NCBI GenBank assembly: GCA_016930115.1
Contig: JAFGHN010000007.1
Span: forward strand, 1 to 17,332
Direction of reading: 5' to 3'
DNA from: Spirochaetales bacterium
GTDB taxonomy: Bacteria > Spirochaetota > Spirochaetia > ARS1246
Length of the DNA stretch: 17,332 nucleotides
How positions within the stretch are numbered: position 1 is the stretch's first letter; each line of letters begins with the position of its first letter. Made by a program: the position numbers and the translations under genes. The notes under the pieces are model-generated. The model made no database searches and had not been told where the DNA came from. It saw only the letters and a list, made by a program, of their open reading frames with translations. Positions 353 to 13,070 of this stretch are shown here, one piece after another.

Positions 353-760
353 ATGACAACCGACCGGCAAGGCAGCGGTTTGCAGTTCATCCTCGATCCC
401 ACCGGTGGAGTGCCCTACTATCGGCAGATCATCATGCAGATAGAGATGGCGATAGCCGACGGGCGGCTCAGGACCGGCATCCAGCTTCCGACTGTCCGGG
501 CGCTGGCTGTCGACCTTCAAATCAATCCAAACACCGTCGCACGGGCCTATAACGAGCTTGAGATCCGCGGTATCGTCAACACCCAGCAGGGTACCGGCAC
601 TTTTATCAGCGATAAGAAGATAGATCTGACCGACAGTGAACGGAGCGAGGTCCTCGCGGGCCTCGTACGTTCATTCCTGGCTACCGCGTCGTCCTACGGC
701 TTTACCGTTGACCAGATCATGACGTATCTCGACGAGAGAAAGGAGGGGCAAAAGCAATGA
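353..760 (+). CDS. GntR-family transcriptional regulator, YtrA-like subfamily (short C-terminal domain)
   Basis: 135 aa. N-terminal winged HTH with GntR signature (IQLPTVRALAVDLQINPNTVARAYNELEIRGIV). The C-terminal part is only about 60 aa, as in YtrA-type regulators. Stop overlaps the next gene (ATGA). Confidence 0.85.
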   Translation: MTTDRQGSGLQFILDPTGGVPYYRQIIMQIEMAIADGRLRTGIQLPTVRALAVDLQINPNTVARAYNELEIRGIVNTQQGTGTFISDKKIDLTDSERSEVLAGLVRSFLATASSYGFTVDQIMTYLDERKEGQKQ

Positions 761-1920
761 AATCGTTGGATTTCTTTGGCCGGCATGAGGATCGCGAGGA
801 GAAAACCGCGTTCGTACGGCACCGCGGGCACTTCAGGTTCAACACTATTTCTGCTCTCGCGCTGCTTATCTTTATCGCCCTCGGCCTGGGTTTTCAGGGT
901 ATTGTCGCAGACTTCCCGGATGCCGAAACCATCGCGTATATCACGTCCGGAGTGCTGGCGGCGGCGGCATTGCTCTTCATCCTTCCATACTGGCCCCTGG
1001 TCATAGCGATCATTGCTGCGATCTGGGCAGTGCTTCCGGTTGCTCTTGGCGTGGACCTGCAGTTCGCGGCGGTCGTCCTCACCCTTGGATTTCTCATCTC
1101 TCCGGGATTCGAGGTGATAAATCAATGGGACAAGATCGTAGTTCTCCGTCTCGGCCGGTTCCACAAGGTCCGGGGCCCGGGCGTGCTGATGTTGTTTCCT
1201 CTTATCGACTCGGTTGCGGGCTATGTTGATACCCGGATCCGGGTGACCGATTTTTCGGCGGAGAAGAGCCTTACAAAGGATACCGTTCCGGTACATGTGG
1301 ACGCGCTCGCCTTCTGGATGATCTGGGACCCTGAAAAGGCGATCCTGGAAGTCGAGAACTTTGAGCAAGCCGTGGTATTGAGCGCTCAGACGGCCTTGAG
1401 GGCCAGTATCGGCTCCAGCGACCTGGCGACACTGTTGAGTGAACGCGAAAGGCTTGGGGAAGAGATCAGAAAGATCGTCGACGCCAAAACGGATTCCTGG
1501 GGGATAACGATCATCTCCGTGGAGTTCAAAGAGATTCTCATACCAAAAGAGCTCGAGGATGTCCTGAGCAGGCAGGCGCAGGCAGACAGGGAAAAAACCG
1601 CGAGGATCGTCCTCGGCTCGGCAGAGGTCGAAATTGCTGGCGCGTTCAAGAAAGCCGCCGACCAGTACCGTGAAGATCCCGTAGCATTCCAGCTCCGGGC
1701 GATGAGCATGATCTATGAAAGCATCAGAAACAGGGGCGGCATGGTGCTCGTTCCCTCTTCGGCCCTCGAATCGATGAATTTGGGTACCGTGCTCGGTGCG
1801 ACGGCGTATGCAAAAAAATCGCCGTTTGCCGCCGGGGACCTTCAGCCGGAAAATGCGCCCGGAAGCCCGCCGGGAAGCGCTCCGGATAGCACACCGGATA
1901 GCGAGCCGGAATCACTATAG
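757..1920 (+). CDS. SPFH/band-7 (stomatin/slipin-like) membrane protein with about 4 N-terminal TM helices and an acidic Pro/Ser-rich C-terminal tail
   Basis: 387 aa. Residues about 30-115 are very hydrophobic (several TM segments). The central region matches the band-7 fold pattern (VVLRLGRF...VDTRIRV...DALAFWMIWDPEKA...ISVEFKEILIPKE...REKTARIVLGSAEVEIA). The tail is PENAPGSPPGSAPDSTPDSEPESL. Translationally coupled to the GntR gene. Confidence 0.85.
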   Translation: MKSLDFFGRHEDREEKTAFVRHRGHFRFNTISALALLIFIALGLGFQGIVADFPDAETIAYITSGVLAAAALLFILPYWPLVIAIIAAIWAVLPVALGVDLQFAAVVLTLGFLISPGFEVINQWDKIVVLRLGRFHKVRGPGVLMLFPLIDSVAGYVDTRIRVTDFSAEKSLTKDTVPVHVDALAFWMIWDPEKAILEVENFEQAVVLSAQTALRASIGSSDLATLLSERERLGEEIRKIVDAKTDSWGITIISVEFKEILIPKELEDVLSRQAQADREKTARIVLGSAEVEIAGAFKKAADQYREDPVAFQLRAMSMIYESIRNRGGMVLVPSSALESMNLGTVLGATAYAKKSPFAAGDLQPENAPGSPPGSAPDSTPDSEPESL

Positions 1921-1932
1921 CGGGGGACGCCT

Positions 1933-2817
1933 GTGATTGAAGTCAGCAATCTCACTCAAGTATACAGAAGCGGAAAAGGCGTTTTCAACCTCGATTTTTC
2001 GATACCGGAAGGAGAGATATTCGGCTATCTTGGACCCAACGGTGCGGGGAAAACAACCACCATCAGGAATCTTCTGGGATTTGCGAACGCCGACGGCGGG
2101 TATGCGAGGATAAACGGTCTTGATTGCAGAAAGGACGCGGCCAGGCTTCAACCGATGATCGGCTATCTTCCCGGTGAAACCGCGTTCCTCGAAGACATGA
2201 CCGGCGCCGAGTTTCTCAAGTTCATGAGTGACATGCGCGGCACCGGGGATACCGGCAGACGTGATAGCCTCACAGAGAGATTTGCCCTCGATCCAAGGGG
2301 AAAAATCAAGAAAATGTCAAAAGGGATGAAACAGAAACTGGCGATCATCACCGCTTTCATGCATGATCCGGCGGTGTACATCCTCGATGAGCCGACCGCG
2401 GGCCTCGATCCCTTCATGCAGAACGTGTTCCTCGATCTCCTCGAGGAGGAACGGGGGCGCGGGAAGACCGTTATGATGTCCTCCCACATCTTTGAGGAGG
2501 TACAGCGAAGCTGTGACCGCGCGGGTATCATCAGGGAAGGGCGCCTTGTCGCAGTTGAAGACATAGAAGCGCTCAACGATGCGAAATCAAGAACATACGC
2601 GGTGACCTTCGCAGACCCCGCGGACTTAGGAAAGCTCGATGGACTGCAATTCCGCAGAATTTCATCGAACAGGGTCGAGATAACCGTCGGTCATGACTAT
2701 CGAAGTTTTTTCCAGACGCTCGCTCACTGCAGCGTGGTAGGGCTGTACTCGTCGGAGCAGTCTCTCGAAGACGTGTTTATGAAGTACTACGGAAGGAACG
2801 GCGGGACAGATGAATAA
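1933..2817 (+). CDS. ABC transporter ATP-binding protein (ABC-2 / DrrA-like subfamily, with C-terminal DUF4162-like extension)
   Basis: GTG start preceded by GGGGGA RBS. Walker A GPNGAGKTT. Degenerate signature MSKGMKQK. Walker B ILDEPTAGLD. H-loop SSHIF. About 80-aa C-terminal extension typical of ABC-2 ATPases. Confidence 0.9.
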   Translation: MIEVSNLTQVYRSGKGVFNLDFSIPEGEIFGYLGPNGAGKTTTIRNLLGFANADGGYARINGLDCRKDAARLQPMIGYLPGETAFLEDMTGAEFLKFMSDMRGTGDTGRRDSLTERFALDPRGKIKKMSKGMKQKLAIITAFMHDPAVYILDEPTAGLDPFMQNVFLDLLEEERGRGKTVMMSSHIFEEVQRSCDRAGIIREGRLVAVEDIEALNDAKSRTYAVTFADPADLGKLDGLQFRRISSNRVEITVGHDYRSFFQTLAHCSVVGLYSSEQSLEDVFMKYYGRNGGTDE

Positions 2818-3610
2818 GACGTTATTTCTCGTGGATCTGAAAGCGAACTGGCGTGTCATTCTCTTTGTCTCTCTCGTATTCATGATATACGTCTTAACGA
2901 GCGTGCTGATGTATGATCCTGACAGCATCGAAAAACTTGAACAGATGTTCACTCTGTTTCCGGAAGGAATGCTCAAGGCGCTCGGTTTCGATACGCTGGG
3001 GACGGACCTCAACGGGTACGTAGCCCACTACCTGTACGGGTTCATCGCAATCATATTCCCGCTTATCTATATCATTGTCATAGCCAACAAACTCATTGCG
3101 AAACACGTCGACTCGGGTTCCATGGCCTACCTGCTTACCACTCCCGTCACCAGGGTGAAGGTGGCGGTAACGCAGGCGGTGTTCCACGTGTCCGGGCTCA
3201 TTCTGATTTTCCTTATCGATATTGGGGTATTGGTGCTTCTGAGCTCCGCGGTTTTCCCGGGAAGTCTCAAGTTGGCGAGCTTTCTCTCGCTTAACTTCGT
3301 GACCATCATGACGTTGACGGTTGCCGGCGGAATCGGTTTTTTGTTTTCATGCATGTGCAACGACTCACGGAATTCTCTGGCCTTTGGGGCAGGTATCCCG
3401 GTCGCGTTCTTTGTCTTCAAAATGGTCTCCGAGATCGACGCCAAGCTCGAAGGTTTCAAGTATCTGTCGGTGTTTTCGCTGATCGAGATAGATAAGATAT
3501 TGGCGGACCCGGCCTACGGTCTGGGCGTGGGTTTTATCCTTCTTGGTGTGTCGGTGTTGCTTTACGGCGCCGGGGTTATCATCTTCAATAAGAAGAGTCT
3601 TGCGATATGA
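2810..3610 (+). CDS. ABC-2 type transporter permease (6-TM type)
   Basis: 266 aa, 6 predicted hydrophobic helices and no soluble domain. ATG overlaps the upstream ATPase stop by 8 nt. Confidence 0.8.
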   Translation: MNKTLFLVDLKANWRVILFVSLVFMIYVLTSVLMYDPDSIEKLEQMFTLFPEGMLKALGFDTLGTDLNGYVAHYLYGFIAIIFPLIYIIVIANKLIAKHVDSGSMAYLLTTPVTRVKVAVTQAVFHVSGLILIFLIDIGVLVLLSSAVFPGSLKLASFLSLNFVTIMTLTVAGGIGFLFSCMCNDSRNSLAFGAGIPVAFFVFKMVSEIDAKLEGFKYLSVFSLIEIDKILADPAYGLGVGFILLGVSVLLYGAGVIIFNKKSLAI

Positions 3611-3629
3611 ATTACAGGGGGTGTTGGTA

Positions 3630-4484
3630 ATGATCAAGGTTGAAGGGCTCTATCATTCGTATTCACATGACGATAAGTATGCAGTCCGCGATGCCAGTTT
3701 TGAAATAACCCGTGGAGAAGTCTTTGGATTCCTGGGGCCGTCCGGGGCGGGGAAGTCGACGACGCAGGGTGTGCTGACCGGTTTGCTTCAACTGCAGAAA
3801 GGCAATGTCTCCGTGGCGGGGTACGACGTCAAGAAACCGGTTCGCAAGATGTTCAACAAAATCGGTGTTTCTTTCGAGCAATCGAACGTATACGGCAAGC
3901 TTACCGCTCTCGAGAACCTCGAGTTCTACAGGAAGCTCTTTGACGTACCCACCCGGGATGCCATGGAGTTGCTCGAGATAGTGGGCCTCGATCACGTCGC
4001 GAACCAGCGGGCGGCGGAGTTTTCAAAGGGAATGAAGCACCGTCTGACTTTCATCAGAAGCATGATCAATAATCCTGAAATTTGGTTTCTCGATGAACCG
4101 ACGACGGGTCTCGATCCGGCGATTGCGAGCGAGATCAAGGACATCATCAAGCGCGAGAAGGAAAAAGGGACGACCGTGTTCCTTACCACCCACAACATGT
4201 TTGTGGCGGATGAGTTGTGCGATAGGGTCGGCTTTATCATCGACGGCGAGATCAAGCTTATCGATTCACCGAGAAACCTGAAGCTTCAATACGGCGAAAA
4301 GCTCGTGGAGGTGGACTACCGCAAAAACGGCGGTACGGTACGAGAGAAACTTTCCTTCATCGATGAGAGCGACAGGCGGCGGCTCAACGAAATCGTAAAC
4401 ACCGGTGCCATTGAAATGATGCACACAAAAGAAGCGACTCTCGAGGAGATCTTTATCAAGGTTACCGGAAGGGGGCTCGAGTAA
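3630..4484 (+). CDS. second ABC transporter ATP-binding protein (ABC-2 subfamily)
   Basis: ATG 3630 preceded by GGGGG RBS (3616-3620). The ORF-track start at 3543 lies inside the upstream permease and lacks an RBS. Walker A GPSGAGKST. Signature FSKGMKHRL. Walker B FLDEPTTGLD. H-loop TTHNMF. C-terminal extension present. Confidence 0.85.
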   Translation: MIKVEGLYHSYSHDDKYAVRDASFEITRGEVFGFLGPSGAGKSTTQGVLTGLLQLQKGNVSVAGYDVKKPVRKMFNKIGVSFEQSNVYGKLTALENLEFYRKLFDVPTRDAMELLEIVGLDHVANQRAAEFSKGMKHRLTFIRSMINNPEIWFLDEPTTGLDPAIASEIKDIIKREKEKGTTVFLTTHNMFVADELCDRVGFIIDGEIKLIDSPRNLKLQYGEKLVEVDYRKNGGTVREKLSFIDESDRRRLNEIVNTGAIEMMHTKEATLEEIFIKVTGRGLE

Positions 4485-5518
4485 TGAAACTGTTATACAG
4501 CTTTCTGAAAGATATGCGGTTGTCCTTCAAGAGCTTCTATATTTATATCGAGATCGGTTTTGCGCTGATATTCGTCGCGATAATGTTGTTTGTCGTTCCC
4601 GAGAACATCCGGCCGCAGGTCACCGTGTACGCCCATATCGATCTGCCTGAATCGTACCTTTCGGCCGCGGAAGGCGCGCTTTCAAAGGAAGGGTACGATA
4701 TAACGATGCTTTCTTCCCGGGAAGAAGTGGAGTCAGAGATTGCTTCCCACAGAAGCAGCGTCGGGCTCGTGGTTTCGCCGGAGGGCGGCAAGATCGTATA
4801 TGACTATATCCTCCAGGGATACGAAAGCGAGAAGTTCAAGAACGTCATCAAGGCCTCGATCGAAGGCACCTTTGTAAAAATGGCGCCCGGATTCCAGGAT
4901 GTCACCTCGGTGACAACCATCGAGGGCGACATCGAAAAGCTCTCAACGCGTCTGAATATGCTCCCGGTTTTCCTGGGGCTTAACGCGGCTTTTATGGGGC
5001 TTTTCATTATTGCGGCGTACATATTCCTTGATAAGGAAGAAGGCACCATCAAAGCCTTCGCCGTTACACCCGCCAAGGTGTGGCACTACCTGGCGAGCAA
5101 GATGGGTGTGATGCTTGTAACCGGATTGTTGTCCGGGTTGATCGCCACGGTGTTTATAGCGGGCGGGAAGGCGCACTACTTCCATCTGATCATGCTCATC
5201 ATCTCGCTCAACGCTTTCGGATCAGCCCTTGGGCTGTTTATTGCGAGCTTCTTCGATACCATGACAAAAGCCATGGGCTGGCTCTATGTTTCGATCATTA
5301 TTCTAGCTTTTGCGGCGGTGTCGTACTACATGCCGGCGTTCTCGCCCCTGGTTATTCGCATCCTCCCTTCGTATCCGATGCTCTTCGCATTCAGAGAGAC
5401 TCTGCACGAAGTGGTGGACCTCGGGTACGTGTACGCAAACGTGGGCGGATTTGCGGCGGCCGCGGTTGTGTTTTTCCTGCTTTCGAACTACCGGTTTAAG
5501 AAGACGCTGACGGTGTAA
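4484..5518 (+). CDS. ABC-2 family permease (N-terminal TM anchor, about 130-aa extracytoplasmic domain, 5 C-terminal TMs)
   Basis: 344 aa. Topology read from hydrophobicity: TM1 at about 17-37, soluble region about 40-165, then 5 hydrophobic helices. TAATG overlap with the upstream ATPase. Confidence 0.75.
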
Positions 5519-5528
5519 GGAGGCTCCC

Positions 5529-6530
5529 ATGTTCAGAAGAATATTTGCGGTTACTTTGCGGGATCTGAAAAGCGGTAGCCGTGATTTCATGATTCCCTAT
5601 ATCCTCGCGGCGCCGTTCCTTCTCGCGCTCATCTTGAAGGCCATCATCCCCGGAGCCGGCTCGGCGACGATAAACATAGCGGTGGACAGATCCGTAAGCG
5701 ATGAAGTCGTTACGTACCTGGAGGGGTACGGCAGAGTTGAAAAGCACGACGGCGTGGCGGATCTGGAAAAAAGAGTAGCGAAGACCGACGACGTATTCGG
5801 GCTCACGAAAACCGCGGAAGGATACGGGATTATCAGACGGGGGGACGAAACGCCCGGGGGGATCGAGATGCTGCAGGCGGTTTTGAATGCCCTGGAGAAT
5901 GGAGACCTCGACCTGCCCGTTGAAGTGCGGCTATCAGATATCGGTTGGAAACTTTCGCCCCTCAAACAGCATGGCGCGAACTTCCTCATCATCTTCTGCT
6001 CGGTATTCGGCGGAATGCTTATCACCTTAAGCCTTGTGGAGGAGAAGATGAGCAACACGCTGTCGGCAATCAACGTGAGCGCTGTCTCAAGGGCAGAGTT
6101 TATCATCGGTAAGAGCATTATCGGTTTCCTTGCGCCGATTCTCGGCGCCTTCGGCGTCATCTGGATCCTGGGATTTGAGGGCATCAACTACGGAATGGTG
6201 GCGCTCTCTTTCGTCAGCGTGGCCCTTATCAGTATCATCATAGGATTCAGCATCGGCAGCGCGAATACCGAACCGATCGGCGCGATTGCGAGCATGAAGA
6301 CCCTCTTCATCCCGGTGTTTGGGTCGATTTTTGGTGGAATATTCCTGGCAGACAAATGGCACCCGTTTCTCTGGTGGTCGCCGTTCTACTGGGCGTACAA
6401 TTCAATGGATTCGATCATGCTCAACGAAGCTTCCTGGGGGAAGGTATTACTGAACAGCGGAATCGTCGTCGTGATCACCGCGCTGGTATTCGCGGCGTTG
6501 AGAAAGAAAATCAGGCATGGCCTGCAGTAA
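5529..6530 (+). CDS. ABC-2 family permease paralogue (same TM1 - extracytoplasmic domain - 5 TM architecture)
   Basis: 333 aa. Strong RBS TAAGGAGG 8 nt upstream. Same architecture as the preceding gene but a divergent sequence. Confidence 0.75.
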
Positions 6531-7310: not shown

Positions 7311-8609
7311 TTATGTTGCCCCGGAAAAAAGAAGCGTCAGCCCCGGTATAAACACAAGTATGACGGCTGCGAGCACGAGCATAAGAAGGAAAGGCAGAGC
7401 GCCCTTGAAGATCGATTGAAGCGGGATGTCGCGCTCTATCCCGCTGACGACATAGACATTGACGCCCACCGGCGGCGTGATAACCCCCATCTGGGTGATA
7501 ATCACCACTATGACGCCGAACCAGATGGGATTAAAGCCAAGCTGCACGATAACCGGATAGAAGATTGGTATGGTGAGCAGAACGAGCGCCAGTGCGTCGA
7601 TAAAGCAGCCGGCGAGGAGGAAGAACAGGATGACAAGGAACATCACCGCCCAGCCCGGAAGCGGCAGATTGGTGAACCAGTTTGCGAGGGCGAAGGGTAT
7701 TTGCGACACCGCAAGGAACCTGCCGAACACCACCGCCGCCGCAACGATGAAAAAAACCATGCTGGAAGTACGCACCGTCTCGAAGAGAACCTTCTTGAGC
7801 ATCTGCAGATTCAGTTTGCCTTTGACCGCCGCCACAAGCAGGCTACCCGCCGCGCCTACGGCCGCCGCTTCTATCGGTGTGAACAGGCCGATGAACATAC
7901 CGCCGATTACAACCACAAAGAGCGCAACCGTTTCAATGACGTTGACCAGTGACTTTAACCGGATTTTCCAGCTCGTTTTGGGGCCCGGCGGTCCAAGTTT
8001 CTTGTTCAGGGAGCACCGGACAAATATCGAACAGCAGAACAAAAACGAGATCAGTATACCCGGGACGATGCCCGCCAGGAACAATTCACCGATCGATTGC
8101 TCGGTCATGAGCGCGTAGACGATAAATACAACGCTGGGAGGGATGAGCATTCCCAGCCCGCCGCCTGCCGCAACGGTCCCGCCGGCCAACTCGTCTGAAT
8201 AGCCGTAGCGACGCATTTCAGGAAGTGCGACGGAGGCCATGGTCGCGGCGGTAGCCGGCCCTGAACCGCAAATGGCGCCAAAACCGGCGCACGCTCCCAC
8301 CGTCGCCATCGCGAGCCCTCCCGGCAGATGTCCGATCCAATTGTACGCCGCCTGAAAGAGGCGCCTGCTGATACCGGCGTGAAACGCCACCTGACCCATG
8401 AAGACAAACAGCGGGATAACCGTCAGGCTGTACGAAGAGAAGGTGTCATAAAGGTCGGCCACCACCATGCTCAACGCGGCGGACGGCGTTACGATCATTG
8501 CAAAACCGGCAAGCCCGGCCGCTATCAAGGCGAACGCAACGGGCATGCTGGTGAAAAGAAGAACAATCAGAATGCCGCAACCCAATATGCCGATCTGGAG
8601 AGGTGTCAT
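7311..8609 (-). CDS. dctM: TRAP transporter large permease subunit (DctM family)
   Basis: 432 aa, about 12 TM helices, typical DctM N-terminus (MTPLQIGILG...). Start overlaps the dctQ stop (ATGA). Confidence 0.9.
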   Translation of the reverse strand: MTPLQIGILGCGILIVLLFTSMPVAFALIAAGLAGFAMIVTPSAALSMVVADLYDTFSSYSLTVIPLFVFMGQVAFHAGISRRLFQAAYNWIGHLPGGLAMATVGACAGFGAICGSGPATAATMASVALPEMRRYGYSDELAGGTVAAGGGLGMLIPPSVVFIVYALMTEQSIGELFLAGIVPGILISFLFCCSIFVRCSLNKKLGPPGPKTSWKIRLKSLVNVIETVALFVVVIGGMFIGLFTPIEAAAVGAAGSLLVAAVKGKLNLQMLKKVLFETVRTSSMVFFIVAAAVVFGRFLAVSQIPFALANWFTNLPLPGWAVMFLVILFFLLAGCFIDALALVLLTIPIFYPVIVQLGFNPIWFGVIVVIITQMGVITPPVGVNVYVVSGIERDIPLQSIFKGALPFLLMLVLAAVILVFIPGLTLLFSGAT

Positions 8610-10222: not shown

Positions 10223-10247
10223 GCGCCCGGCGTTTCCAGCCGGGCGC
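10223..10247 (-). terminator. GC-rich hairpin (9-bp stem GCGCCCGGC / GCCGGGCGC, 7-nt loop) 14 nt downstream of the oxidoreductase stop; no U-tract
   Basis: Read directly: gcgcccggc-gtttcca-gccgggcgc. Lacks a T-run on either strand, so it is a possible terminator or attenuator rather than a confirmed intrinsic terminator. Confidence 0.3.
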
Positions 10248-10260
10248 CGTGTGGATTGTC

Positions 10261-11610
10261 TCACGCCGACATTTGTTGTATCGCAACTTCTGCAGCATTT
10301 ACGAGTTGATAGGCTATTGGCGACGCCGTAAGCGCAGGATGGGTGCCCGTTTGGAATGTGGCAATATCGTTTGCCGTCATTCTCTGGTGAATGCATGCGC
10401 TTATCGCGTTTATGAGCTCTCCGCCGCTTTTTGCGCCGTTTACCTGGCCGCCTATGATGACCTGGCTGCCGACTTCAAAAAGCAGCTTGACGCTCAGCAT
10501 TTCACCGCCGGGCATACAACCCGGATGACGGTTGATCGATTCCGCAACTCCCTCCACAACGTGGTAGTTTTTGGCCTCAGCCTGGGCTTTTGTAAGGCCG
10601 GCCGCGGCAAAAGCGCAGTCGCCGATCACCGTCGAATACACACCAATGACGCCCATGTTCACCCTGTGCGTTGAAAACAGGTTGGCGCCGGCTATCCGCG
10701 CCTCCATGGAAGCTATCGAGGCAAGCTTGAGGGCGGACGGCTTTCCGTCAAAGAAGGATACTTTCTCCGCGCAGTCCCCGCAGGCGAAAATAGAATCGTC
10801 GCTGGTTCTCATATACCTGTCCACTTGTATTCCGCCGGTGAGCCCGATCTCCAGACCCGCATCCTTGGCTAGTTCGGTGTTGGCTTTCGCCCCGATGCCG
10901 AGAAGCACGATGTCAACATCTATCTCCTTGCCGCTGTCAAGCTTTACTTTCTCTACGTATTCGCCACCCTCGAGAGACTCGACCTTCTCGTCGAGGGAGA
11001 GAGAAATATTCTCGGCCTTCAAGGTTTCCTCGGCTTTGACGCAGAACTCTTCGTCATACACGAGCTGCAAACAGTGGGTGAGCATCTCAACAATTGATAT
11101 TTTCAAATCGGGATAGCGGCGTCTGCATTCCTCCGCAAGCTCAACGCCGATAAAACCGCAACCCACGACGCAGAGGCTCTTTGCTTTTCCCATTGCTTCA
11201 ATTGCGGTTTCGAGGTACGGAACGTCTTTCTGGATTGCAAAGATGTTCTTCTTGTTGACTCCGGGGAACGGAGGTATGACCGGCCGCGAGCCGGTCGCGA
11301 GTACGAGGCTGTCGTATCCAAACTCGTCTTTTGAAGCGCCGGTCACCGTCTTCGCTTTGGGATCGATCTTTACAACCTCGTCCACAACCGTATCGATTGC
11401 GTTCTTCTTCATGGTGTCATCCGCGGGAATGAGGTTTTTTTCAGGAGTACCCACCACGCCAAAAGCGTAGGGGATCCCGCAAGGTATCGGAACAAGCTTT
11501 TCTTTGCGAATAACCAGAATACTCTTCTTCGGGTAATGCCTGCGCGCCGTTATAGCGGCAACAAGACCGGCGGCGCTTGCGCCTATCACGATAACATCAT
11601 ACTTCTTCAT
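10261..11610 (-). CDS. FAD-dependent pyridine nucleotide-disulfide oxidoreductase, single-redox-Cys class (NADH oxidase / CoA-disulfide reductase / NADH peroxidase family)
   Basis: 449 aa. FAD GxGxxG (VIVIGASAAG). Candidate redox-active Cys in PIPCGIPYAF near residue 44. NAD(P) site VVGCGFIGVELAEE. C-terminal dimerisation-domain pattern. GGAGG RBS. Confidence 0.85.
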   Translation of the reverse strand: MKKYDVIVIGASAAGLVAAITARRHYPKKSILVIRKEKLVPIPCGIPYAFGVVGTPEKNLIPADDTMKKNAIDTVVDEVVKIDPKAKTVTGASKDEFGYDSLVLATGSRPVIPPFPGVNKKNIFAIQKDVPYLETAIEAMGKAKSLCVVGCGFIGVELAEECRRRYPDLKISIVEMLTHCLQLVYDEEFCVKAEETLKAENISLSLDEKVESLEGGEYVEKVKLDSGKEIDVDIVLLGIGAKANTELAKDAGLEIGLTGGIQVDRYMRTSDDSIFACGDCAEKVSFFDGKPSALKLASIASMEARIAGANLFSTHRVNMGVIGVYSTVIGDCAFAAAGLTKAQAEAKNYHVVEGVAESINRHPGCMPGGEMLSVKLLFEVGSQVIIGGQVNGAKSGGELINAISACIHQRMTANDIATFQTGTHPALTASPIAYQLVNAAEVAIQQMSA

Positions 11611-11638
11611 GTATTCCTCCAGAATGCCTTATCTAAAT

Positions 11639-11657
11639 AATATTGATAATCATTATT
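11639..11657. promoter_or_regulatory. Fur-family (Fur/Zur/PerR-type) box AATATTGATAATCATTATT, with 7-1-7 core TGATAAT-C-ATTAT, in the divergent intergenic region
   Basis: 16/19 identity to the classical Fur box GATAATGATAATCATTATC, read directly. It lies 29-47 nt upstream of the minus-strand oxidoreductase start. It overlaps a plausible plus-strand promoter (TTGATA 11643-11648, 17 nt, TATAGC 11666-11671) for the ZIP gene. Confidence 0.5.
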
Positions 11658-11738
11658 TATTGCAGTATAGCCGGTCCCGGAAATTGTGGCAATCGTTTTT
11701 GACTCCGCTTGAGGACGTGCGTTACACTACAGGTATCT

Positions 11739-13070
11739 ATGAGTATTGAATTGCTGCGAAGCGCCTTCTTCTGGGGCTTGATCAGTGCGGTTTCGCTTCC
11801 GCTGGGAGCGTTGCTCGGGCTGCTGACCCGCCCTCCTCGCAAAGTGACGTCGGTGCTCATGGCTTTTGGCGCCGGCGCGCTGCTTTTTGCGCTGACCATT
11901 GAGCTTTTCTCTGAAAGCCTGCATCTGTCGCGCGAGTCAGGCAACAGCATCATCTATATTACAATAGCGGGTGCGCTGGCAGGCGGCCTGCTGTTTGACC
12001 TGCTCAACCAGCTCCTCAACAATCGCGGCGCCTTTCTGAGGAAGTTCGTTACGACAAGGAAGCACCTCGTCCGGATGAAGCGGAAAATGGCCCGCGCGCT
12101 CGTCAACGAATTGAGCCGGGTCAGGCTTCTTCAGTCGCTTCCCCCCGACGACATAGCAACGTTGATTCCCAATATGAAACGAGAGACCTTCGATGCAGGC
12201 GAAGTGATTTTCAGACAGGATGATCTCGGGTCAACTCTCTATTTCATCGTTTCCGGAGAGATCGAAATCCTGAGACGCGACGAGAGCGGGGATGAAAAAA
12301 CGGTCGCCGTTTTGTCCGATAATGACACCTTTGGAGAAATGGCGCTTCTCGGCAGCAGTCCACGGAATGCGACCGCCAGAGCCAAAACGCGAACGAACGT
12401 TTTGAAGGCTCTGCACAGCGATTTTGAGACGGCCCTTGCGCAATCGGACGCGCTCCGTGAATCGGCGCTGGTGCTGTTTCACCAACGCGCGGAGAATCTC
12501 TCGCAAAAGGCGAAGGACTACAGCGCCGAGGAGTGGGAGAGCAGGTGTTTGAAACGGCTGCAGCGTCTTTCAATCCCGGTTTCCGAGCAGGAAATCAACG
12601 AGGAATCGCAAAAAGCGATGCTGGGGAAAGGCGCGGCGATGGCGATCTGGCTTGGCATACTTCTCGACGGCATCCCTGAGTCCCTCATCATCGGGATCCT
12701 CTCGGCGAGCGTCACCGGTATCAGTCTGGCGTTTATCACCGGCGTTTTTCTGGCAAACCTCCCTGAAGCAATGTCAAGCGCCGTCGGCATGAAGAAAAGC
12801 GGTATGTCCTTCTCAACCATTCTCCTCATGTGGGGTTCTCTCTGTCTTATTACAGGCGCCGGCGCCGGTATCGGTGTTTTGCTGTTTCCGCCATCTACCG
12901 GAAAGTCGAGTTACATGCTCTTGAGCGGTATCGAGGGACTTGCCGCGGGAGCGATGCTGACGATGATCGCCGAGACGATGCTGCCTGAAGCCTTTGAGCA
13001 GGGCGGGGCAATCGTCGGATTTTCGACTCTGCTTGGCTTCCTTACCGCTCTTCTTGTCAAAGTGTTTTGA
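11739..13070 (+). CDS. ZIP-family (ZupT-like) metal transporter with a cyclic-nucleotide-binding (CAP-effector-type) domain inserted in the TM3-TM4 cytoplasmic loop
   Basis: The N-terminal 3 TMs align in pattern with ZupT TM1-3 (compare E. coli ZupT [21 protein letters not shown] with MAFGAGALLFALTIELFSESL here). The C-terminal 5 TMs carry ZIP xxPE motifs: LLDGIPESL and LANLPEAM (versus HNFPEG / HNIPEG), and ETMLPEAF (versus DELMP). Between them, residues about 145-265 form a complete cNMP-binding domain with an intact phosphate-binding cassette, FGEMALLGSSPRNATARAKT. Start chosen at ATG 11739; the track's TTG at 11709 is less likely. Confidence 0.75.
   Translation: MSIELLRSAFFWGLISAVSLPLGALLGLLTRPPRKVTSVLMAFGAGALLFALTIELFSESLHLSRESGNSIIYITIAGALAGGLLFDLLNQLLNNRGAFLRKFVTTRKHLVRMKRKMARALVNELSRVRLLQSLPPDDIATLIPNMKRETFDAGEVIFRQDDLGSTLYFIVSGEIEILRRDESGDEKTVAVLSDNDTFGEMALLGSSPRNATARAKTRTNVLKALHSDFETALAQSDALRESALVLFHQRAENLSQKAKDYSAEEWESRCLKRLQRLSIPVSEQEINEESQKAMLGKGAAMAIWLGILLDGIPESLIIGILSASVTGISLAFITGVFLANLPEAMSSAVGMKKSGMSFSTILLMWGSLCLITGAGAGIGVLLFPPSTGKSSYMLLSGIEGLAAGAMLTMIAETMLPEAFEQGGAIVGFSTLLGFLTALLVKVF

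Follow-up and report, generated by a model that had tools for sequence, protein, structure and literature searches.

A conserved 21-bp element between two divergent genes of a Spirochaetales bacterium is probably the operator of a Fur-family regulator, whichever paralogue binds it, and acts on the leftward gene of the pair, here called oxi. The element lies on contig JAFGHN010000007.1 (assembly GCA_016930115.1), a stretch of 17,332 bp that is the entire contig of a metagenome-assembled genome (MAG) and is referred to below as the window. The spacer between the two genes covers positions 11611–11738 (128 bp, 40% G+C). On one side of it, oxi is predicted to encode an FAD/NAD(P)H oxidoreductase of the NADH oxidase (Nox)/CoA-disulfide reductase (CoADR)/NADH peroxidase group; on the other stands a gene for a ZIP transporter with a cyclic-nucleotide-binding domain (ZIP-cNMP). 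A fuller statement, which we offer more tentatively, is that the element serves a PerR-type regulator that represses oxi alone.

The 19-mer AATATTGATAATCATTATT (11639–11657, + strand) agrees with the Fur consensus GATAATGATAATCATTATC at 16 of 19 positions, and its two 9-nt arms are self-complementary about position 11648 at 8 of 9 positions. It is the sole match with at most 3 mismatches on either strand of the window, where shuffles of the whole sequence gave a mean of 0.01 such matches. The agreement is not a by-product of A+T richness, because shuffled or random sequences rarely reach it: 16/19 was attained by 0/20,000 shuffles of the 128-bp intergenic region, 5/20,000 shuffles of its 40-nt AT-rich core, and 8/20,000 random 128-mers with the composition of that core (80% A+T). 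A 7-1-7 match alone is weaker evidence, since 214 of 20,000 sequences of such AT-rich background (~1%) contained one at 12/14 or better. These counts bear out the first-pass annotation of this DNA, which had described the 19-mer as a Fur box at 16/19 located 29–47 nt upstream of the oxi ATG (its A is at 11610), and had pointed to a 7-1-7 core, which matches the consensus TGATAATNATTATCA at 12/14. The divergent flanking genes that it had named were likewise recovered by domain searches, as a minus-strand gene with Pyr_redox_2/Pyr_redox_dim and a plus-strand ZIP gene with a cNMP domain.

The same region was compared among orthologues. Protein searches yielded two further, independent lineages of close orthologues, so that three were compared: the window (with L081), L082 (identical to L165; oxi 90% identical), and L162 (identical to L163 and L164; 87%, GCA_964536145.1), whose upstream regions were aligned and scored segment by segment. 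A sigma-70-type promoter of oxi is present in all three, with −35 hexamers TTGCCA, TTGTCA, and TTGCCA, respectively, and a spacer of 17 nt in each. Invariant columns are concentrated in the −35 (5/6) and −10 (6/6) hexamers, the 21-bp block (16/21), and the ribosome binding site (RBS; 6/6), and are scarce in the promoter spacer (4/17) and in the 5′ untranslated region (5′UTR) from the block to the RBS (2/20). Taken against these two flanks (6/37), the conservation of the block is significant (Fisher p = 9e-6). The result is a clean phylogenetic footprint, in which a promoter and a discrete element form a conserved module of the oxi gene in three orthologue lineages. This module agrees with the earlier view of the site as a Fur-family-type operator placed to control the NADH-oxidase/CoADR-like gene.

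The operator begins 5 nt past the conserved −10. From the usual 7-nt distance to the −10, the oxi transcript should start near 11657, which places the operator at about −1/+1 to +20 of the predicted transcript, a position typical of repressors. Because the element covers about +1 to +20, over the predicted start, we infer a repressor role. Oxi would thus be transcribed from TTGCCA-17-TATACT on the minus strand, starting at the operator edge. With one or two repressor dimers seated on its pair of overlapping 7-1-7 units, the DNA from +1 to ~+20 would be occupied, preventing open-complex formation or promoter escape. Once the repressor no longer bound DNA, oxi would be derepressed.

Alternatively, the block might not bind protein at all and might represent an AT-rich initial transcribed region, an RNA element of the 5′UTR, or chance conservation among close relatives. 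It would indeed form the first ~20 nt of the oxi mRNA, and the comparison comprises three lineages only. However, no Rfam match at E ≤ 1 was found in 11500–11850, and the 56-nt leader folds like its shuffles (−4.8 kcal/mol, z = −0.22). Moreover, divergence has left the neighboring 5′UTR and promoter spacer nearly random, whereas the block was kept, and the block is significantly similar to a known operator class. This explanation therefore appears extremely unlikely. The features of the locus are listed in Table 1.

Table 1. Features of the oxi/ZIP-cNMP locus, in coordinates of the window.
Feature	Position	Strand	Description and basis
Operator, 21 bp	11638–11658	.	TAATATTGATAATCATTATTT (+ reading); two overlapping 7-1-7 inverted repeats, Fur-consensus match, conservation
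7-1-7 repeat no. 1	11638–11652	-	TGATTAT-C-AATATTA in oxi sense, central C at 11645
7-1-7 repeat no. 2	11644–11658	+	TGATAAT-C-ATTATTT; unit named by the first-pass annotation
oxi −35 hexamer	11687–11692	-	TTGCCA; promoter scan; 17-nt spacer
oxi −10 hexamer	11664–11669	-	TATACT; promoter scan; invariant in three lineages
oxi RBS	11615–11620	-	GGAGGA; invariant in three lineages
oxi (predicted regulated gene)	10261–11610	-	Pfam Pyr_redox_2 (1.9e-59) and Pyr_redox_dim
GC hairpin, perfect 9 bp	10223–10247	-	GCGCCCGGC-TGGAAAC-GCCGGGCGC; read from sequence; 14 nt past oxi stop codon
ZIP-cNMP promoter candidate	11699–11728	+	TTGACT-18-TACACT; promoter scan; separate, outside operator
ZIP-cNMP gene	11739–13070	+	ZIP transporter with cyclic-nucleotide-binding domain; domain search

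Within the operator, two 7-1-7 units offset by 6 bp are found in all three lineages. Repeat no. 1 is the better conserved unit, with 13 of 15 columns invariant when counted from the three-lineage alignment. On the plus strand of the window it reads TAATATT-G-ATAATCA (3 mismatches), and in oxi sense its orthologues are TAATAAT-C-AATATTA in L082 (TAATAATCAATATTA) and TAATTAT-C-AATATTA in L162 (TAATTATCAATATTA). Repeat no. 2 reads TGATTAT-T-ATTAATA in L082 and TGATAAT-T-ATTAACA in L162 on the plus strand; its outer three bases (11656–11658) and position 11651 vary among orthologues. The register of repeat no. 1 matches TAATAATNATTATTA at 11/14 in the window, 13/14 in L082, and 12/14 in L162, the first and last being hand counts. 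According to the passage of PMC5007448 that cites Baichoo and Helmann (2002), the 19-bp Fur box is built from a pair of overlapping 7-1-7 repeats, TGATAATNATTATCA, to which a dimer of dimers binds. The oxi element resembles this classical box in its 16/19 agreement, in the 6-bp offset of its two units, and in its overlap with the promoter core, the arrangement expected of an occluding repressor. Yet, of the two inner G/C contacts only one (G11645) is conserved in the orthologues, the outer G/C positions are absent, and the target is a redox flavoenzyme rather than an iron-uptake gene. Since C11651 is T in both relatives, the classical TGAT-A-ATCA core is specific to the window copy, and the E. 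coli-like look of this site is partly a lineage-specific accident. The element nonetheless combines a 7-1-7 repeat, a double-unit box of 19–21 bp, promoter overlap, and orthologue conservation, as a Fur-family operator does.

A non-Fur regulator could also be considered, either of the CRP/FNR type (TTGAT-N4-ATYAW) or a MarR-, TetR-, or Rrf2-type repressor on an AT-rich palindrome. AT-rich palindromes over transcription starts are bound by many repressor families, and the plus strand reads TTGAT-AATC-ATTAT, TTGAT-TATT-ATTAA, and TTGAT-AATT-ATTAA in the window, L082, and L162, i.e., 8–9/10 against TTGAT-N4-ATCAA, with an invariant first half-site and ATTAT, ATTAA, and ATTAA as the second. However, a 14-bp FNR site leaves the invariant 7 nt past TTGAT (AATAATA, 11636–11642) unexplained, whereas the left arm of repeat no. 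1 explains them, and conservation is centered on 11645 and not on the FNR axis at 11649/11650. The CRP/FNR reading thus fits less well than two 7-1-7 units. In addition, the match to Fur-family boxes is statistically unusual, no CRP/FNR-type regulator is encoded in the window, and the cNMP domain of the transporter has no helix-turn-helix. Taken together, a regulator outside the Fur family is distinctly improbable.

Within the Fur family, the candidate paralogues were compared by their boxes. In B. subtilis, the consensuses are TGATAATNATTATCA for Fur, TTATAATNATTATAA for PerR, and TCGTAATNATTACGA for Zur; those of PerR and Fur are supported by PMC545781. The Fur box is matched in the register of repeat no. 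2 at 12/14 (window), 11/14 (L082), and 13/14 (L162), the PerR box at 11/14, 10/14, and 11/14, and the Zur box at 9/14, 9/14, and 10/14, respectively. Under Bacillus rules, Fur and PerR are therefore separated by only one or two positions, and these margins are small. Zur is an unlikely regulator on these matches, and the site contains no CG dinucleotide, whereas Zur boxes are distinguished by CG/CG at positions 2–3 and 13–14. The TGAT...ATCA that marks both half-sites of iron-Fur boxes is interrupted by the T at 11651 in L082 and L162, and the right half-site of the oxi operators ends in TTT (window), ATA (L082), and ACA (L162). PerR sites of B. subtilis are marked by a T at position 2 and an A at position 14. 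Compared with the B. subtilis PerR box, the element has the same 7-1-7 architecture, AT-only arms, central C, and a target of the oxidative- or disulfide-stress type, although the oxi operators match that box at 10–11/14 only.

A box from within the phylum provided a closer comparison. Scanning with the conserved block revealed a Fur-family gene in the Spirochaetota MAG loci L025 and L058 that is preceded by a perfect TAATAAT-C-ATTATTA. The L058 protein (L058:3288–3707) matches B. subtilis PerR (PDB 2fe3) at 1e-30 and Fur structures at 1e-17, and, as read from the alignment, it keeps counterparts of the regulatory-site residues of PerR (His37/Asp85/His91/His93/Asp104) along with both CxxC pairs. 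On other Spirochaetota contigs, the genes of its relatives are directly followed by katG, dps/ferritin, 1-Cys peroxiredoxin, and rubrerythrin genes. By structure match, regulatory-site residues, and gene neighborhood, the protein is a predicted PerR. Altogether, TAAKAATCATTAYTA is present at four independent Spirochaetota perR promoters (perR-katG/dps lineages), where it ends 2 nt before the ATG, a position that implies predicted perR autoregulation and near-leaderless mRNAs. The arrangements observed are perR-katG, perR-dps-katG, and perR-prx-rbr (L058:3251–3707, L025:5277–5505, and L170–L175 around 2984–3411).

All three oxi operators match this predicted box, at 13/15 in the window (repeat no. 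2; 12/15 in repeat no. 1), 14/15 in L082, and 13/15 in L162 (both repeat no. 1). The operator is the sole match at 13/15 or better both in the window and in the L162 contig (18 kb), neither of which holds a further copy of the motif, and TAATAATCAATATTA of L082/L165 is the sole match of at least 14/15 outside perR promoters in the ~1 Mb of loci scanned. One 12/15 match to TAAKAATCATTAYTA occurs in the window at 7496, inside the dctM coding region. The perR-promoter box and the oxi operators (13–14/15) share a 7-1-7 with AT-only arms and a central C, although the window copy has G/C where TAAKAATCATTAYTA has A/T. Among the boxes tested, the in-phylum PerR box appears to fit best.

A precedent for the regulatory link exists in the same phylum. 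The passage of PMC6454574 that cites Boylan et al. (2006) describes expression of cdr in Borrelia burgdorferi as partly dependent on the Fur/PerR homologue BosR. The product of cdr (BB0728) belongs to the same enzyme superfamily as that of oxi (single-Cys Nox/CoADR), with Fur-family-dependent expression reported there; the two cases differ in that an operator over the oxi start implies repression and that oxi falls below the CoADR cut-off. BosR is described as a Zn-dependent activator with other target motifs. A PerR-type regulator is favored because enzyme class, Borrelia precedent, and box match are taken together; if it is a peroxide sensor of this type, oxi would be induced by peroxide or oxygen stress, in a scheme resembling BosR-dependent cdr expression.

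Several points weigh against this proposal. Among the oxi homologues examined (77 from metagenomes and 3 more), the site is kept only in the relatives with 87–90% identity and was not found in those at ≤75% identity, so that the regulation is lineage- or clade-specific and rests on three lineages. The transcription start of oxi is a prediction, and domain and profile searches found no Fur-family gene encoded in the 17-kb window. Per 128 nt at 80% A+T, a match to TAAKAATCATTAYTA of at least 13/15 is expected by chance in 2.8% of cases (0.2% for at least 14/15). The box itself was built in this analysis on four promoters, all from distant Spirochaetota with ZIP orthologues ~49% identical to that of the window. 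The in-phylum PerR match (12–14/15) is no better than the Bacillus iron-Fur match (11–13/14), and the comparison sets a PerR box of this phylum against an iron-Fur box of Bacillus. Fuangthong and Helmann are said to have reported in 2003 that the base equivalent to G11645 in the register of repeat no. 2 distinguishes Fur from PerR boxes in B. subtilis; G11645 is invariant in the three lineages, which would speak for Fur. Finally, box type is not diagnostic for the paralogue across phyla, because Fur-box-like sequences are assigned to PerR elsewhere and vice versa. PerR boxes differ between phyla, and the predicted PerR box of Desulfotalea (D. psychrophila), GtTAATgATnATcATTAaC, is Fur-box-like (PMC545781).

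These points bear directly on a related explanation, in which oxi alone is again repressed from the same operator, by an iron-sensing Fur, so that the flavin-only enzyme is switched on under iron starvation, e.g., as an iron-sparing substitute for iron-dependent O2 or peroxide reductases. The 16/19 agreement with the E. coli box, the matches to TGATAATNATTATCA (a single mismatch in L162), and the invariant G of TGAT favor this explanation, and the oxi-family clusters of other phyla hint at a link to iron–sulfur metabolism. On the other hand, the TGAT-A-ATCA core is not conserved, no iron-uptake gene is nearby, and both the function of the target and the BosR-cdr precedent point to redox stress. 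The weight of the G is also reduced, since the in-phylum PerR box and H. pylori's iron (holo-)Fur box, TAATAATnATTATTA (PMC3950669), are both AT-only, and the G may not discriminate here. The H. pylori box shares its AT-only 7-1-7 sequence with the perR-promoter box of Spirochaetota and is matched by the oxi operators at 11–13/14, but there it signals iron-Fur. Because TAATAATnATTATTA serves iron-Fur in that organism, box sequence alone cannot assign the paralogue. Overall, control of oxi by iron-Fur is considered unlikely, and the PerR-type repressor is retained as the tentative choice.

The divergent ZIP-cNMP gene has its own predicted promoter and does not appear to be controlled from the operator. 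In the window, the −35 of this promoter starts 41 nt from the operator edge, and its −10 ends 10 nt before the ATG. L082 has TTGACG-18-TACAAT, likewise 10 nt before the ZIP ATG and with aligning surrounding bases, in an intergenic spacer of 246 bp, with the operator 155 bp from the ZIP −35. In L162, the promoter–operator module is intact, the upstream gene is a hydrolase on the same strand, and neither a ZIP nor a TRAP gene is nearby. The operator is assigned to oxi and not to ZIP because L162 keeps the module without ZIP and because the module of L082 lies 155 bp from the ZIP promoter.

The first-pass annotation had suggested that the site overlaps the best plus-strand promoter of the ZIP gene and might be an operator shared by both genes, and neither suggestion was supported by the comparison. 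The plus-strand candidate over the site, TTGATA-17-TATAGC, lacks T at position 6 of the −10, fails the promoter scan, and arises only from reading the conserved oxi −10 in reverse complement. One site, for Fur, Zur, or PerR, that represses the ZIP-cNMP importer along with oxi would suit the divergent arrangement over 128 bp, the pairing kept in L082, and a ZIP importer as a logical Zur or Fur target, as well as the perR gene ~2.4 kb downstream of ZIP-cNMP in L025 and L058. However, the site does not stand at both promoters, its pairing with ZIP is missing in L162, the Zur box is matched at just 9–10/14, and upstream of ZIP-cNMP orthologues a Fur box was found in 0/60 loci (other genomes of many phyla, ≤70% identity). 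The best upstream match among these orthologues, 13/19 in L017 from an AT-rich genome, was treated as chance. Co-regulation of both genes from one site is thus very improbable, and under the favored PerR-type repression of oxi, the ZIP-cNMP gene would run from its own promoter, outside operator control.

Taken alone, this is a routine predicted operator of an ordinary regulation type. It nevertheless makes a testable prediction, that a Fur/PerR-type sensor regulates a flavoprotein of the Nox/CoADR family in uncultured, free-living Spirochaetales, a group in which, to our knowledge, redox and metal regulation has hardly been studied. The box of the perR promoters, TAAKAATCATTAYTA, could be a starting point for reconstructing regulons in Spirochaetota genomes. 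The locus also illustrates that a textbook-looking Fur box can hang on one lineage-specific base, and because the Fur look can rest on such a base, assigning the paralogue from the consensus alone is unsafe.

The oxi protein contains a single redox cysteine in a PCGIPY motif near residue 42 (Cys42-type). Its closest PDB matches are NoxA-3 of A. fulgidus (6pfz, 1e-55), followed by reductases of CoA disulfide and persulfide (1e-47 to 1e-46). Against the NCBIfam CoADR model it reaches 253 bits, below the model's cut-off of 458 bits, and oxi is therefore named only Nox/CoADR-like, a sequence-based label without substrate assignment. The GC hairpin downstream of oxi may form the 3′ end of its transcript, as a terminator or as an mRNA-stabilizing element before dctPQM-usp; it has no T tract, and the terminator scan does not call it. 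Neither a promoter nor a canonical terminator was called between oxi and dctP. No TRAP genes follow oxi in L162. The window (353–6530) and L162 (8390–14632) share a syntenic GntR(YtrA-like)-Band7-ABC-2 transporter cluster; it directly adjoins oxi in L162, and the usp-dctMQP genes lie between in the window.

In L169 (GCA_964387575.1), whose oxi is 75% identical, TAATAATAATTCTCA matches the Fur box at 12/14 and lies 10 nt upstream of a TTGAAG-17-TACAAT promoter (L169:136–189). Because it sits upstream of the −35, it was not counted as the same site; it could be a Fur-family site of separate origin or a chance match.

Regarding the ZIP side of the spacer, the predicted −10 just 10 nt from the ATG in both lineages would give a leader of 3–4 nt (window 11723–11741, L082 723–739), and the stretch from the −10 to the ATG contains Shine–Dalgarno-like AGG/GGTG bases. 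The ZIP mRNA is near-leaderless, or else the true ZIP promoter lies elsewhere. The 12-mer TTTTTGACTCCG, which includes the ZIP −35 (window 11696–11707, +), recurs in L082 at 797–808 (+), there on the oxi-sense strand and inside the extra ~118 bp of the L082 spacer; a small intergenic inversion or duplication may have produced it. The ZIP protein carries its cNMP-binding domain in a cytoplasmic loop, and at least 60 near-full-length orthologues with 37–70% identity occur in Spirochaetota, Desulfobacterota, Myxococcota, Gemmatimonadota, Nitrospirota, and other phyla, which suggests a family of cNMP-gated metal importers.

In other phyla, members of the oxi family are often found within clusters of Nitro_FeMo-Co (NifX/NifB-like), DUF5320, NUBPL/Mrp-type P-loop ATPase, and radical-SAM genes (L166:3022–6277, L133:940–4350, and neighbors of L083–L161), and some of these ATPases carry ferredoxin domains. 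Each of the top neighbor families accounts for 10 of 124 neighboring open reading frames. Only in the clade of the window does oxi seem to stand alone with a promoter of its own. Oxi may be pictured as having moved out of a Nitro_FeMo-Co/DUF5320/Mrp-type cluster in one free-living Spirochaetales clade, where it gained its own promoter with a Fur-family operator under iron-Fur control. We regard this history as quite unlikely; if true, a flavin-only O2/disulfide reductase would be an iron-sparing replacement for iron-dependent oxygen defenses. In a weaker variant, the same repressor would also tune the adjacent cyclic-nucleotide-gated ZIP importer.

Two of the loci with clustered oxi genes carry repeats of their own. 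A Fur-family gene of L133 (4964–5430, − strand) runs convergently to the oxi cluster and has in front of it TTGCAACTGAGTTGCAT, a sequence in agreement with the Desulfovibrio-type Zur box ATGCAACnnnGTTGCAT at 16/17 (box from PMC545781). L166 holds GTTGCATCATGCAAC and further TTGCAT repeats in the region (2696–3021) upstream of its Nitro_FeMo-Co-DUF5320-oxi operon.

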